From: a virus
Length of the DNA: 64,000 bases
Virus record (IMG/VR): IMGVR_UViG_3300028625_000001
Location: 1 to 64,000 of that record
Reading direction: 5' to 3' (one strand)
Shown: positions 6,272 through 45,354 of the stretch, piece by piece
Layout: each line of letters starts with the position of its first letter
How positions within the stretch are numbered: position 1 is the stretch's first letter
Made by a program: the position numbers and the translations under genes
Notes under the pieces: generated by a model
Databases searched by the model: none
The model's input: only the letters and a program-made list of their open reading frames with translations
What the model was told of the DNA's origin: nothing

Positions 6272-6575
6272 AGTTCTAAAAGGTGTAGTCCTGGTTCTGT
6301 TAGTAGCAACGATAATTATTCTTATAGCATCGATAATCTCTATGGCGTTCTTCGGCATAATGAGTCATTATCATAAAGTCAATAATCCTGCCCTTTTAGC
6401 CTTCTTAGATTATGAGGTCGGGGAAATGTCCCCGCCGCTGACGGCTTTGATTGCTCAACATGCAGCTTATGAGTTTTGGGAACTATTCAGTTTAGCAGTT
6501 ACACTTATTTCTTTTGTCGCTCTTGGAGTCTTTGCTTATATCGGCAGTGTGACGGATGCTTTCGAGGAGTATTAA
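6264..6575 (+). CDS. membrane protein (103 aa, 3 predicted TM segments)
   Basis: RBS AAGGAGG. Hydrophobic stretches VLVLLVATIIILIASIISMAFFGI and LAVTLISFVALGVFAYI. Confidence 0.6.
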   Translation: MTRVLKGVVLVLLVATIIILIASIISMAFFGIMSHYHKVNNPALLAFLDYEVGEMSPPLTALIAQHAAYEFWELFSLAVTLISFVALGVFAYIGSVTDAFEEY

Positions 6576-6814
6576 TGAAAAAGACGTGGGTACATATAAG
6601 AAGGTCTCCTTACAAAGAAGCCATGTATATTAATGGTAATAAAGCCTTAGAAGATGATGTATATCTCGATGCTATTGATTTGACACGAAAGATAGCGTCT
6701 ATTGGCGAGGGAATATCGCTTGAAGTAACCTTCGATGAAGTATCAGTAGAGCCCGGAACTGAAGCTGCCCCCTTTCCCACGAAGATAACCCGTGCCGACA
6801 TCCTTGATTATTAG
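6575..6814 (+). CDS. hypothetical protein (79 aa), paralog of 42210-42476
   Basis: ORF 6476..6814 trimmed to ATG 6575 after GAGGAG. MKKTWVHIRRSPYKEAMYINGNK aligns with KTLWVHVRSSGSYQALYINGIK of 42210. Confidence 0.6.
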   Translation: MKKTWVHIRRSPYKEAMYINGNKALEDDVYLDAIDLTRKIASIGEGISLEVTFDEVSVEPGTEAAPFPTKITRADILDY

Positions 6815-6845: not shown

Positions 6846-7137
6846 AAACGATGAGACTTCAAGTCAACGACCCCCGGCTGAAGCCGGGAGCTTGTAGCTC
6901 AGGTTGACTAGCCTGAGTGCTTCGGACACTACGTTACCGACAAATGTATAGGCACCATAGGATGCGTTCCCAAGTCTTATGCTCTGCGGTTAGTGGTTAA
7001 ACAGTCCTGATGGGTAGGGACAGTACTGCTAACGAGAAACTGTCGGATAACATTGGCGATGGGAGAATTACTCCGTAAGGAGGTAGGCTATAGATTAGCC
7101 TACACGGAGCTGGAGAGATCCAGCTCCTTACCACTAT
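6846..7137 (+). ncRNA. IscB-type omega-RNA (HEARO-like), ORF-less copy; putative guide 6846-6861
   Basis: From 6862, AGTCAACGACCCcCGGCTgAAGCCGGGAGCTTGTAGCTC... is about 85% identical over about 95 nt to the leader of iscB (40656 onward). Further shared blocks: CTGCGGTnAnTGnTTAAACAG and GATAACATTGGCGA. Confidence 0.65.
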
Positions 7138-7197
7138 GTGAAAGGAGGCAGGCGGCTTCCTCCCCACAGCTAAAGCAGGGGTTCTCCGCCGATTAAT
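6862..7197 (+). mobile_element. miniature (iscB-deleted) IS200/IS605-like OMEGA element: left end/omega-RNA plus right end
   Basis: The left part matches 40656-40890. The last 60 nt (7138-7197, GTGAAAGGAGG...GCTAAAGCA...) match the 60 nt after the iscB stop (42148-42207), with covarying hairpin stems. Confidence 0.6.
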
Positions 7198-7200
7198 ACG

Positions 7201-7434
7201 ATGAATCTAACCCTTTGGAACGCGTTGAACATAGAGACAGAACCTGACATATTAGTCAATCTTGAGGTGACTAGCTACAAAGGATCGGTCGGGTTTATGC
7301 CGGTGTTCGAAACGAAAGAGGCGATAGAAACTTATCTAAAGTCGGTTAATGCCCCAATCGACAATTATCATGAGGTGGCAGTCCCGACTGCCGCGTTTAT
7401 AAAAGAAGAGGAGGTTGATAAAACAAATGAGTAA
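7201..7434 (+). CDS. hypothetical protein (77 aa)
   Basis: ORF track entry. Its ATG directly abuts the mini-element right end. Confidence 0.5.
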   Translation: MNLTLWNALNIETEPDILVNLEVTSYKGSVGFMPVFETKEAIETYLKSVNAPIDNYHEVAVPTAAFIKEEEVDKTNE

Positions 7435-35995: not shown

Positions 35996-36295
35996 GGGGA
36001 TGACAAGGTTTCGACAGGGCTGTACAAGTATTGACCTCATGCCGTCGAGAGACGTAAAACCTAAACTAAGAACTGACAACCCATTACTTGAAAGAGCGGC
36101 TGCTTAGTCGCTCCCCGTCCGAAAATTTCCTACTCTTATATCGGGTTACGGGTCATAAAGAGTAGGGCTACGAGCCCCAAGTTTGTGTAGAAGTTCTTGT
36201 TAAAAACTTCTATTCGCCTCCAAGCATAGGAAAGCATGTAAAGGGTCGGCATGGAACAGTTTTGGACCCGGGTTCGACTCCCGGCATCTCCACCA
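35996..36295 (+). ncRNA. ssrA: tmRNA (one-piece SsrA)
   Basis: 5' GGGGATGACAAGGTTTCGACAGGG and 3' GGACCCGGGTTCGACTCCCGGCATCTCCACCA form the tRNA-Ala-like domain. An internal frame ends ...D-N-P-L-L-E-R-A-A-A-TAG (stop 36105-36107). Confidence 0.85.
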
Positions 36296-36357
36296 GCTCT
36301 TTTGCCAGTGCACACCAGTAGAACGGAAAGACCTTTTTCATCAAACCTCCTTTCAAG

Positions 36358-36399
36358 CGGGGTCATGGTTTAGGCGGGGTTCGATTCCCCGCGGCCCCG
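36358..36399 (+). other. tRNA-like acceptor/T-arm minihelix (no D or anticodon arm)
   Basis: GGGGTCA pairs with CGGCCCC (6/7 including a G-U). CGGGG-TTCGATT-CCCCG is a perfect T-arm. Only 9 nt separate the 5' acceptor strand from the T-arm. Confidence 0.45.
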
Positions 36400-40390: not shown

Positions 40391-40460
40391 AAGCGGGAAA
40401 GCTCATTGGAGAGCGCCCTAACAGATGGGGAGGTTGTGGGTCCGAATCCCGCCTCGCTTA
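40391..40460 (+). tRNA. tRNA-like gene with a short (15-nt) anticodon arm, loop AACAGAT (CAG with A33)
   Basis: Acceptor AAGCGGG/CCTCGCTT, extendable to 9 bp. D-arm GCTC-ATTGGA-GAGC. T-arm GTGGG-TCCGAAT-CCCGC (TCC rather than TTC). No CCA. Confidence 0.4.
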
Positions 40461-40613: not shown

Positions 40614-40657
40614 AGGAGCGTAACTCAGTTGGTTAGAGTGCTGATCTGATACGTCAG
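40614..40657 (+). pseudogene. 5' two-thirds of tRNA-Ile (GAU), truncated at the omega-RNA scaffold
   Basis: AGGAGCG-TA-ACTC-AGTTGGTTA-GAGT-G-CTGAT-CTGATAC-GTCAG is a canonical acceptor 5' strand, D-arm and anticodon arm. No variable loop, T-arm or 3' acceptor strand follows. Confidence 0.7.
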
Positions 40658-40897
40658 TCAACGACCCACGGCTAAAGCCGGGAGCTTGTAGCTCTTGTTG
40701 ACCAGCTTGAGTGTTTTGAGCACTACGTTACGGGTGAATACATAGGCACTCCGGGGTGACGCCACCAGCCCCGGACACTGCGGTGAATGATTAAACAGGT
40801 TGAGGGTCTAAACCAGTGTTGTTCACATTAAACCACTTGATAACATTGGCGAGGTGGACTTTACCGGCGTATGCCGAGAATTGAGAGGTAACTATCT
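40640..40897 (+). ncRNA. IscB omega-RNA (putative 16-nt guide 40640-40655 plus about 240-nt scaffold)
   Basis: Structured leader directly upstream of iscB. Homologous to 6862-7137. Contains conserved hairpins such as CCACGGCT-AA-AGCCGGG and AGTG-N7-CACT. Confidence 0.7.
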
Positions 40898-42207
40898 ATG
40901 CAACGTGTATTTGTAGTTGACAAAAACAGAGAGCCACTGATGCCGTGTCATCCAGCGCGGGCAAGGGAATTACTAAAAAATAGACGGGCAAAAGTGTTAC
41001 GCCGCTACCCGTTCACCATCATCCTGCTGGACCGTGAGGGTGGTGATGTACAACCAGTTGCATTGAAGATTGACCCGGGTAGCAAAACTACAGGGTTGGC
41101 GCTGGTCGCTGATGGCCAGCGTGGGAAACGCGTGGTATGGGCAGGCGAACTTAACCACCGTGGAGAACAGATAAAAGCAAGTATGCTGTCAAGAAAACAG
41201 TTGCGGCGTGCACGCAGATCACGTAAGACTCGCTACCGTCAGCCGCGTTTCGACAATCGCCGCCGGGCCGAGGGGTGGATACCGCCGTCGCTGCGAAGTC
41301 GCGTGGACAACGTGTTGACATGGACAGAACGATTGCGTAGGTTCACACCTATCTGCGCCGTGAGTATGGAGTTGGTGAAATTTGACACACAGGCTATGCA
41401 AAACCCGGAAATCAGTGGTATTGAGTATAAACAAGGCGAATTGATGGGATATGAAGTGCGTGAGTATTTGCTTGAAAAGTTTGGTCGAAGGTGTGCTTAT
41501 TGCGGAGCGACTGGCGCGCCACTAGAAATCGAACATATTATTCCAAAGTCTCGTGGTGGGTCAAATAGGGTAAGCAACCTAACACTGTCTTGTACCGTAT
41601 GTAATCAGCATAAAGGCAATCAGACGGCAACAGAGTTCGGACATCCAACAATTCAGGACAAAGCGAAGCAACCATTGAAAGATGCGGCGGTTATGAATAC
41701 AACACGTTGGACACTTTATCGCAGCTTAAAACAATTAGGCTTACCAATGGAAGTCGGTACTGGTGCACGGACTAAATACAATCGAGTACGACAGAATTAT
41801 CAGAAAGAACACTGGATTGACGCAGCCTGCGTGGGTGTAAGCGGAGAAAAAGTGTATATATCTTCTGGCACAATACCACTGGTTATTAAGGCTACCGGTC
41901 GCCAGTCACGTATCATGTGTCGCCCGGATAAGTACGGTTTCCCGCGCACGAAAGCTAAACAAGGCCGTGTTCACTACGGTTTCCAGACGGGCGACATCGT
42001 GCTGGCAACAATTCCTGAAGGTAAACATACCGGGGTACATATTGGACGTGTGGCAGTTCGTAACAGACCATCGTTTCGACTGAACGATTTTGATGTACAT
42101 CCAAAATACTTAAAAGTTTTGCATCATTCAGACGGCTACAGTTATCAGTGAAAGGAGGGAGCGCCATTCCTCACCGCGCTAAAGCACGGTGTCCCCTGGC
42201 GCAATTT
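40656..42207 (+). mobile_element. IS200/IS605-superfamily OMEGA element (omega-RNA + iscB + right end), no tnpA
   Basis: The boundaries are where similarity to the 6862-7197 copy starts and stops. The right-end hairpin CACCGCGC-TAAA-GCACGGTG covaries with CCCCACAGC-TAAA-GCAGGGG in the mini copy. Confidence 0.6.
40898..42151 (+). CDS. iscB: IscB RNA-guided nuclease (PLMP, split RuvC, bridge helix, HNH, TID)
   Basis: REPLMPCHPARAR (PLMP). KIDPGSKTTGLAL (RuvC-I). RRARRSRKTRYRQPRFDNRRR (bridge helix). MELVKFD (RuvC-II). CAYCG...EIEHIIPKSRGGSNRVSNLTLSCTVCNQHKGN (HNH). EHWIDAACVG (RuvC-III). 417 aa. Confidence 0.85.
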   Translation: MQRVFVVDKNREPLMPCHPARARELLKNRRAKVLRRYPFTIILLDREGGDVQPVALKIDPGSKTTGLALVADGQRGKRVVWAGELNHRGEQIKASMLSRKQLRRARRSRKTRYRQPRFDNRRRAEGWIPPSLRSRVDNVLTWTERLRRFTPICAVSMELVKFDTQAMQNPEISGIEYKQGELMGYEVREYLLEKFGRRCAYCGATGAPLEIEHIIPKSRGGSNRVSNLTLSCTVCNQHKGNQTATEFGHPTIQDKAKQPLKDAAVMNTTRWTLYRSLKQLGLPMEVGTGARTKYNRVRQNYQKEHWIDAACVGVSGEKVYISSGTIPLVIKATGRQSRIMCRPDKYGFPRTKAKQGRVHYGFQTGDIVLATIPEGKHTGVHIGRVAVRNRPSFRLNDFDVHPKYLKVLHHSDGYSYQ

Positions 42208-42209
42208 CT

Positions 42210-42476
42210 ATGGGAATAAAAGCAAAGACGTTGTGGGTGCACGTTAGGTCTTCAGGTTCATATCAGGCATTGTACATTAACGGAATTAAAGAAATCGAAG
42301 GCGAACAAATAGACATTGTTGAAGCTTTTGACCTCTTGGCCGAAAGAACGAATAACGAAGCCTATATCCTCGATTATACATACGAAGACATAGACGAGGA
42401 AGAAGATCCTTTTGATAATGCAGTAGATCGTGACTTCGATTTCCCGGAATCGCTTGACAAAAAGGACGTTATATAG
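42210..42476 (+). CDS. hypothetical protein (88 aa), paralog of 6575-6814
   Basis: ORF 42189..42476 trimmed to ATG 42210 by alignment with paralog A. The ATG abuts the element right end. Confidence 0.5.
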   Translation: MGIKAKTLWVHVRSSGSYQALYINGIKEIEGEQIDIVEAFDLLAERTNNEAYILDYTYEDIDEEEDPFDNAVDRDFDFPESLDKKDVI

Positions 42477-42560: not shown

Positions 42561-42689
42561 GGGCGCATGGCAAAATTGGCAGATGCTATCGTGACCGAAA
42601 GGTTAGGAGTCTCGTGAGTGAACACGTGAAAAAGCTCGCTAGAATGGGGATCTTGACCATTCGTACAGGTTCGAATCCTGTCGCGCCCA
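42561..42689 (+). tRNA. class-II-like tRNA-like gene with about 50-nt insert (129 nt), paralog of 38721-38894
   Basis: Acceptor GGGCGC(A)/(C)GCGCCC. D-arm GCA-AAATTGGCAGA-TGC. T-arm ACAGG-TTCGAAT-CCTGT. Shares GCTATCGTG...GCTAGAA...TTCGT with 38721. GAAA-tetraloop hairpin at 42590-42607. No CCA. Confidence 0.45.
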
Positions 42690-45262: not shown

Positions 45263-45354
45263 TTAGGTTCGTCGAAGAGGGGTAAGTTTCAATGAGAGCA
45301 ATCATGTTCTCAATGCGACTTACCCTCATTTTTTATCAACAGGAGGCTTTTAAA

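Follow-up and report, generated by a model that had tools for sequence, protein, structure and literature searches.

The stretch analysed here, which we call the window, comprises 64,000 nt (positions 1 to 64,000) of the IMG/VR virus record IMGVR_UViG_3300028625_000001 and is part of a tailed-phage genome of approximately 113 kb, with genes for a large terminase, a portal, a cement protein and a tail protein of 3538 amino acids (aa), together with a transfer-messenger RNA (tmRNA) and several tRNAs. An Rfam scan of the whole window returned two loci that match HEARO (RF02033, gathering score 83), the family now called IscB omega-RNA, and no further HEARO or CRISPR feature. One of these lies within a 338-bp, protein-less insertion of the IS200/IS605 type on the + strand at 6863–7200 (GTCAACGACC...GATTAATACG), hereafter mini-element A, and the other belongs to the resident element that carries the iscB gene at 40898–42151. 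An earlier reading made from the letters alone (the sequence-only reading) had counted one IscB gene in the window, correctly, and had described the first locus as an ORF-less omega-RNA with its own guide, in a miniature derivative of an IscB transposon. This description holds: the scaffold is structurally complete and scores 143.1 bits against HEARO, the longest open reading frame (ORF) inside 6863–7200 has at most 56 aa and none encodes a nuclease, and both transposon ends are kept together with stubs of the gene. Here, we argue that 6863–7200 is very probably a non-autonomous, internally deleted IscB-type element of the IS200/IS605 family, comparable to palindrome-associated transposable elements (PATEs) or miniature inverted-repeat transposable elements (MITEs), that would serve RNA-guided homing or retention wherever a compatible IscB is available.

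The borders of mini-element A were read from sibling contigs, near-identical sequences in independent ENA, JGI and Logan assemblies that were obtained via exact-protein look-ups of the flanking genes. The element is inserted between ...GACTTCAA and ATGAAT..., its junctions read ...CTTCAA|GTCAAC...AATACG|ATGAAT in independent assemblies of all three sources, and a target-site duplication is absent at both. The right border falls at 7200 and not at 7197, where the sequence-only reading had put it. The insertion site, site A, is polymorphic: the element is present in the window, L044, L047 and L068 (the last found by the pattern scan described below), and absent from L049 and from L042, L043, L045, L046 and L048. 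The element-free alleles are unlikely to come from unrelated genomes, their flanks being near-identical. Three alleles thus occur among the sibling contigs. Besides the element itself, these are the joint in L049 (...GATGAGACTTCAA|ATGAATCTAACC...), which is the donor joint expected after excision of the element, and the allele of the remaining five element-free contigs (L042-type), in which 50 nt (ATGAAGAAAG...TTTAGCT) stand at the junction (position 6862|7201). The 50-nt segment extends the downstream ORF to 106 aa, and at its minus-strand end the flank motif occurs a second time, as CTTCAT. As a side observation, each of the two window elements stands in place of DNA on its guide side, and a pentamer resembling the transposon-adjacent motif (TAM) closes the stretch that was replaced.

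The guide of this omega-RNA (guide A, AACGATGAGACTTCAA) occupies 6847–6862 on the + strand, in phage DNA that the element-free siblings place just outside the transposon right end (RE), and it is simply the 16 nt of whatever phage DNA flanks the insertion on its left side. The sequence-only reading had chosen a 16-mer one base further to the left; guide A is shifted because the empty sites set the left border at 6863 (GTCAAC), and the A found before GTCAAC at both loci is coincidental. The two guides do differ as that reading had claimed, with 1 of 16 positions identical between guide A and the guide of the resident element (guide B). In L042-type alleles the 16-mer of guide A is matched perfectly and is followed directly by ATGAAG, and in L049 it carries one TAM-distal mismatch and is followed by ATGAAT. 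The TAM of the window copy is ATGAAT (7201–7206, + strand), and its ATG is the start codon of ORF 7201–7434. In IMG/VR, the guide-A target 18-mer gave unrelated chance matches only; within the window, both guides at up to 4 mismatches gave no extra match with an adjacent scaffold or a plausible target. The upstream genes at site A are co-oriented with mini-element A, and a promoter/terminator scan, itself weak evidence, gave no + strand signal near it. Paralogous small ORFs lie upstream of A (6575–6814) and downstream of the resident element (42210–42476) with 31% identity (E 7e-9); they were considered as parts of the elements and rejected, both being outside the empty-site borders.

Scaffold A fills 6863–7071 on the + strand and covers HEARO model positions 1–211. 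A chance match is excluded because the Rfam E-values are about 1e-30. As is typical of HEARO RNAs, the guide precedes the scaffold on its 5' side and falls beyond the border, which is the first scaffold base, 6863, and the IscB element of L052, compared with the window, shows the same arrangement; HEARO RNAs also stand directly upstream of an IscB (HNH) ORF, and here only stubs of its ribosome-binding site (RBS), start and stop remain. The first ~57 nt of the scaffold double as the RE, with the hairpin CCCCCGGCTGAAGCCGGGAG. In what follows, A-type denotes the IscB lineage to which this scaffold belongs and B-type the lineage of the resident IscB. Comparison with L068 and with the full A-type element of L082 identifies 7071–7103 (+ strand) as the remnant of the 5' end of a deleted A-type iscB, comprising a GNRA-capped hairpin with the RBS (CTCC-GTAA-GGAG) and then a 7-bp hairpin that formerly held the start codon, the ATG of which is AGA at 7092–7094 in the window and intact in L068. 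A perfect 9-bp hairpin with a GAGA loop (GAAA in L068) follows at the internal deletion junction (7106–7127, + strand), the last codons of the A-type iscB are also kept, and the transposon left end (LE; 7138–7200, + strand) consists of GTGAAAGGAGG, stems, the linker TTCTCC and the terminus GATTAATACG.

Aligned and folded, as the sequence-only reading had proposed, 13 scaffolds (A-type, B-type and two more distant ones) give a consensus structure of 61 pairs in which 99% of cells are paired. Changes on both sides are found at 25 of the 61 pairs, values that none of 500 column shuffles reaches (0/500), and in slid registers the pairing falls to 30–40%. All helices are retained in scaffold A, with compensatory changes relative to the B type, and its 209 nt contain no indel and one weakened pair only. 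Relative to full A-type scaffolds, the window copy differs by a compensatory pair, by switches between G-U and Watson-Crick pairs and at loop positions, so that pairing is preserved. The single-stranded junction motifs GTCAAC, ACGTTAC, ATAGGCAC, CTGCGGT, TTAAACAG and GATAACATTGGCGA are invariant in A and B types, and the shared blocks that had been noticed beforehand (CTGCGGT..TTAAACAG and GATAACATTGGCGA) are indeed invariant core motifs of the omega-RNA family. Loss of structural elements had been named as a sign of an inert remnant; the helices and the end hairpins are intact.

The tail at 7138–7200 has 45 identities over 61–63 nt with 42148–42209, and apart from its right border the claim that it copies the 60 nt after the iscB stop codon is correct. 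The LE of A has an outer stem GGCGG/CCGCC and an inner hairpin CCCCACAGCTAAAGCAGGGG. The covariation reported for the inner stem (CCCC/GGGG in A vs CACCG/CGGTG in B) is confirmed, with compensatory changes at 6 of 7 pairs across 15 family members, and it extends to the outer stem (GGCGG/CCGCC vs GCGCC/GGCGC), which was read by direct inspection, RNAalifold having missed it owing to a MAFFT offset.

Mini-element A belongs to a different IscB lineage than the resident gene. Scaffold A is 93–96% identical to omega-RNAs adjoining a 419-aa A-type IscB (L082, L095) vs 64–65% to all B-type scaffolds (65% to the resident omega-RNA), and the A-type IscB and the window IscB share 35–36% protein identity. 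The sequence-only reading had taken A for a second copy of the resident iscB leader, at about 85% identity over the first ~95 nt. The figure was close, the measured value being 82.7% over the first 81 aligned nt and about 60% over the rest, but the attribution was not, given that the scaffold stems from an IscB lineage whose protein is only ~35% identical. The local similarity of A to the resident locus arises because A-type, B-type and TnpB elements share transposon ends, and the stretches in question, the first ~80 nt and the 60-nt tail, are shared IS200/IS605-type ends. Derivation of A by deletion from the resident iscB element was therefore rejected on lineage (65% scaffold and 35% protein identity), and the identities mark mini-element A as an internal-deletion derivative of a foreign A-type IscB element. 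The copies in the window and in L068 occupy the same site and are 97% identical.

To place the element in its family, JGI metagenomes were scanned with a degenerate right-end pattern, and the resulting 50 stretches were sorted by the sequence that follows the RE. The same RE and LE bound B-type IscB, A-type IscB, TnpB and gene-less minis, and a fifth kind is a truncated omega-RNA without LE (L075/L062). The RE is reverse-complemented at the end of the TnpB elements, and the family LE has the layout GAAAGGAG, nested hairpin, TTTCT-like terminus. Minis have originated repeatedly among the scanned stretches: in L095 one contig holds both another A-type mini and a full A-type element, and a B-type mini with one identical deletion junction occurs at three unrelated sites (L077/L098, L101 and L103). 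L096 carries a full IscB at a site where another contig has the B-type mini. Side by side, L096 and L103 share the same left flank (98% over 700 nt), followed by a full IscB element in one and a gene-less mini in the other, and the mini at the L103 site has a hairpin variant (GCAAGTC) that is typical of other minis, a hint that it arrived by gene-conversion replacement rather than arose by deletion in situ. Several contigs that host family members are phage-like, with a DNA polymerase and a primase flanking L082, and with tRNA clusters. Judged by the features of PATEs, mini-element A has subterminal hairpins at both ends without terminal inverted repeats or a target-site duplication, is inserted beside a short conserved motif (the TAM) on the LE side, and contains no protein-coding gene between ends that it has in common with nuclease-bearing relatives.

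All 22 distinct LE flanks (22/22) begin with ATGA or ATGG, and the motif belongs to the target because two clean empty sites retain it. In 15 of the 22 the flanking ATG opens an ORF of at least 50 codons, vs a background of 29% (p = 2e-4). The ATGG/ATGA split tracks a single base of the LE linker, TCCCC going with ATGG and TCTCC or TTTCC with ATGA (17/17 unique LEs), a correlation that rests on one clade-level change and is statistically weak. In IS200/IS605 elements the cleavage site pairs with a guide inside the transposon end, and the split is as predicted by this rule. One and the same motif serves TnpA and the nuclease (Meers et al. 2023, bioRxiv 10.1101/2023.03.14.532601). From the flanks we suggest that the resident IscB probably prefers ATGG, while the target of omega-RNA A is followed by ATGA. 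An outward-facing GAAAGGAGG is conserved before the LE hairpin (for example in window 7140–7200 and 42150–42209), where the flank starts with ATG, and GAAAGGAG is kept at the LE of IscB-, TnpB- and mini-type elements, always directed at the flanking ATG. The outward-facing GAAAGGAGG may act as a split Shine-Dalgarno sequence that rescues translation of a gene whose RBS has been displaced.

The resident B-type IscB element occupies 40657–42209 on the + strand and comprises an omega-RNA (40657–40864, + strand; HEARO 134 bits, model 1–211), iscB (40898–42151) and an LE (42148–42209). The gene starts 33 nt after the HEARO match and encodes a protein of 417 aa with the Pfam domains RRXRR and HNH, which matches solved IscB structures in PDB and has conserved RuvC and HNH motifs. 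The element cuts a tRNA-Ile(GAT) gene, of which the 5' half, reaching to the anticodon stem, remains at 40614–40656 (+ strand), and guide B is the last 16 nt of this truncated tRNA (40641–40656, CTGATCTGATACGTCA, anticodon arm). On the other side, the TAM is ATGGGA (42210–42215, + strand), with the start codon of ORF 42210–42476 as its ATG. L052, L054, L055, L057 and L059 are siblings without an iscB element at this site and have the intact tRNA-Ile(GAT), as supported by ARAGORN (tRNA-Ile gat), by Rfam (68 bits) and by alignment (compare L052 3397–3474). Relative to them, the resident element replaces ~155 nt, namely the tRNA 3' half and the spacer up to the ATG of an 88-aa gene. The tRNA 3' half was sought downstream of iscB and is absent from the window, being found only in the siblings, and the missing segment ends in GCCCAC on the minus strand, which resembles the family flank motif (CCCAT). 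In those siblings, a 90%-identical IscB element is inserted cleanly at window position 45291|45292, between ...AGGAGGCTTTTAAA and ATGGAAGTC... (clean insertion in L052, L054, L055 and L104). The window holds the unoccupied target for that element at 45276–45297 (+ strand; ACAGGAGGCTTTTAAA + ATGGAA), and in a co-infection its genome would be the predicted victim or recipient.

Further members of the family were seen in a relative (L058) and in siblings. A TnpB element of 393 aa with the same right end (L058 2006–3200, JGI Ga0209510_1004386) sits in a neighbouring tRNA-like gene that corresponds to window 40392–40459, its right end matching, in reverse complement, the ~40 nt with which the IscB omega-RNA begins. 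A third omega-RNA is present in a complete 113-kb sibling genome (L075 5481–5705, JGI Ga0116194_1000082) and in L062. It shares 97% identity with the resident scaffold, breaks off directly behind the iscB RBS, lacks a left end and has yet another guide (AAATAGGGAGTCGTAA); it is a better candidate than copy A for true trans-use by a B-type IscB. INPHARED phage DNA searched around both loci gave no match except a 67% HEARO hit in a huge-phage record, and IMG/VR searched with the neighbouring proteins gave no relatives. Elsewhere in the window, the phage-encoded tmRNA (35996–36295, 109 bits) has an unusual predicted tag (VKPKLRTDNPLLERAAA) and is followed by a weak match to the permuted tmRNA model at 36258–36381. 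Weak tRNA-model hits lie at 42561–42689 (29.3 bits) and at 40392–40459 (28.3 bits), of which the first spans 129 nt and implies a ~58-nt insertion (intron or disruption) in a tRNA gene, and further T-arm-like fragments occur near 36379, 36627 and 38874. In L006, a Blastocatellia IscB element is preceded at ~1 kb by a hit to the twister-P5 ribozyme (1721–1783, 50.7 bits).

Several observations weigh against an element capable of homing or retention. Compared with the commonest sibling allele, mini-element A replaces 50 nt and is not a pure insertion, and a clean empty site is given by L049 alone. No Y1 transposase (Y1_Tnp) was hit among 54 window ORFs, no A-type IscB is encoded in the 64-kb window, and a complete sibling genome has three right-end matches only, none of which is an A-type IscB. 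The element diverges by 3.0% between two phage lineages and its flanks by 2–4%, and this nearly equal divergence argues neither for nor against purifying selection after loss of the ORF. Finally, B-type insertion sites abut ATGG in 6 of 6 cases and A-type and TnpB-type sites abut ATGA, so that the resident nuclease may not accept the ATGA beside the A target. The missing cognate IscB and TnpA, the equal divergence and the residual start codon, already mutated, would also suit an inert relic, a dead passenger that is never loaded or moved again and decays slowly while being inherited with the phage, and we consider this less likely than not. However, a scaffold of 209 nt without an indel and with one weakened pair, and end hairpins that are intact and show compensatory changes, speak against it; the site is polymorphic in the population, L049 has the exact joint expected after excision, and the sister minis have clearly moved as minis. 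A chimera assembled from the iscB leader and tail was also considered, given that repeats can mis-assemble and that contig ends in SRR8476429 fall 48 nt within the element and precisely on its right border, but the same junctions occur in independent assemblies (window, ENA ERZ27257502, JGI Ga0116194 and Logan), SNPs of its own mark the JGI copy, and at 65% identity the sequence is no mosaic of the resident locus, so that an artefact has practically no weight.

The sequence-only reading had favoured a CRISPR-like arrangement in which the orphan RNA provides the IscB of this phage with a functional second guide; the phage would then possess a two-guide weapon or drive. An intact IscB with its catalytic motifs and an intact second scaffold do share one genome, their core motifs are identical and most differences between the A and B scaffolds are compensatory and lie in helices, at least two phage lineages combine the A element with a B-type IscB, siblings hold matching targets, and standalone omega-RNAs that act in trans are documented (Altae-Tran et al. 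2021, as cited in PMC9581776). Nevertheless, we consider this unlikely. Identity to the resident system amounts to 35% for the cognate protein and 65% for the scaffold, the flank motifs differ (ATGA vs ATGG), the same architecture recurs as plain deletion derivatives, and the guide is set by the insertion site and not acquired, there being no array, no repeats and no adaptation genes or machinery. Still less probable is a cis-acting expression element in which the LE would serve ORF 7201–7434 as a structured ribosome-binding site and the RNA scaffold would be irrelevant. The layout of outward GAAAGGAGG, hairpin, 7–10 nt and ATG would fit such a role, as would the conservation of GAAAGGAG across LE types in the direction of the flanking ATG, the excess of flanking ATGs that open ORFs of at least 50 codons (15/22, p = 2e-4) and the clean L052 insertion exactly between a native AGGAGG and its ATG. 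However, these features would be those of a side-adaptation that limits harm, the conserved omega-RNA structure is left unexplained, and the ATG bias also follows from a TAM of ATG(A/G) combined with selection against gene disruption.

A non-autonomous element kept by RNA-guided homing or retention thus remains our preferred explanation, and for its activity we infer a sequence that leads from transcription through loading and cleavage to homing. Transcripts of the co-oriented upstream genes would read through into the element and yield an RNA of guide and scaffold, a compatible IscB would load it, and the complex would cut the uninterrupted allele (guide match followed by ATGA), be it in co-infecting sibling phages or at the donor joint left by excision. 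Recombination with an element-bearing genome would then copy mini-element A back, as homing or retention, and a move to new sites would need a Y1 TnpA in trans. The right end of an IscB element is at the same time its scaffold, with the guide situated beyond the border, and transcription must enter from upstream (Meers et al. 2023), and the co-oriented upstream genes without a nearby + strand promoter fit this read-through rule. Copying into co-infecting element-free siblings would be an instance of the 'non-restorative homing' that has been put forward for phages and plasmids (review PMC13565253). The more likely natural partners are an A-type IscB and a TnpA from the host or from a co-infecting phage. 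Trans-use of omega-RNA A by the resident B-type IscB is doubtful because its elements abut ATGG and the target of A has ATGA, and on relatedness, too, scaffold A does not qualify as a partner (65% scaffold identity, 35% for the cognate protein); we rate it as rather unlikely. The literature offered nothing usable on omega-RNA cross-compatibility among IscB orthologues.

Neither standalone omega-RNAs nor PATEs are new, and A adds a natural phage example. Standalone omega-RNAs that function with IscB (OMEGA systems) have already been described, and they resemble A in having a complete scaffold and a 5' guide with no adjacent IscB gene and an IscB elsewhere in the genome (Altae-Tran et al. 2021, as cited in PMC9581776). 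A differs in that the only IscB in view is of another lineage (35%) with an apparently different flank motif, and in that it resides in a phage, with documented borders and empty sites. PATEs carry omega-RNAs that need a nuclease in trans and, like A, keep both ends, have no protein gene and depend on nuclease and TnpA in trans (Meers et al. 2023). The PATEs of that study for which trans-use is considered are paired with TnpB, whereas A is of the IscB type, its scaffold lying at the RE and oriented the other way, and, unlike those PATEs, keeps recognisable stubs of the deleted iscB. With HEARO RNAs (RF02033; Weinberg et al. 2009) A shares a full-length match above threshold, the same helices and the junction motifs, although the family name implies an adjacent HNH ORF, which A lacks. 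As in CRISPR systems with a multi-guide Cas9, several guides might in principle direct a single RuvC/HNH nuclease family, but A has no repeat-spacer array, spacer acquisition or tracrRNA, the window has one omega-RNA copy at each of two unrelated sites, and each guide is fixed by the position of its transposon copy and targets that copy's own empty site. The free-standing homing endonucleases of T-even phages (Seg, Mob) bring about intronless homing and marker exclusion. They resemble A as proposed here in being phage-borne selfish elements that would have the element-free allele of a co-infecting relative cut and the element copied by repair, and also in a site in or near a tRNA cluster. Unlike Seg and Mob, A carries no nuclease, and recognition would be by a guide RNA and a 4-nt motif instead of by a protein.

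As this case shows, an omega-RNA without a gene of its own is not necessarily that of the nuclease encoded in the same genome, which calls for caution when multi-guide systems are deduced from sequence alone. That the phage's IscB loads the orphan omega-RNA and, in co-infection, cuts element-free siblings at the gene start at 7201 seems improbable to us. If true, a 338-bp gene-less RNA element would be a phage-against-phage gene drive or exclusion weapon, and sibling phages would fight with interchangeable RNA-guided homing modules (IscB, TnpB and mini copies) aimed at start codons. Proposals that IS200/IS605 elements home between co-infecting phages by RNA guidance have so far been mainly theoretical (PMC13565253). 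This phage population provides a natural test set at single-base resolution, in which one backbone occurs with and without a gene-less omega-RNA element, with IscB at two alternative sites and with a TnpB element in a neighbouring tRNA-like gene, and in which the genomes without each element hold the matching target and TAM. Insertion at start codons, together with a Shine-Dalgarno sequence that faces outward, may be the reason why densely packed phage genomes tolerate such elements.

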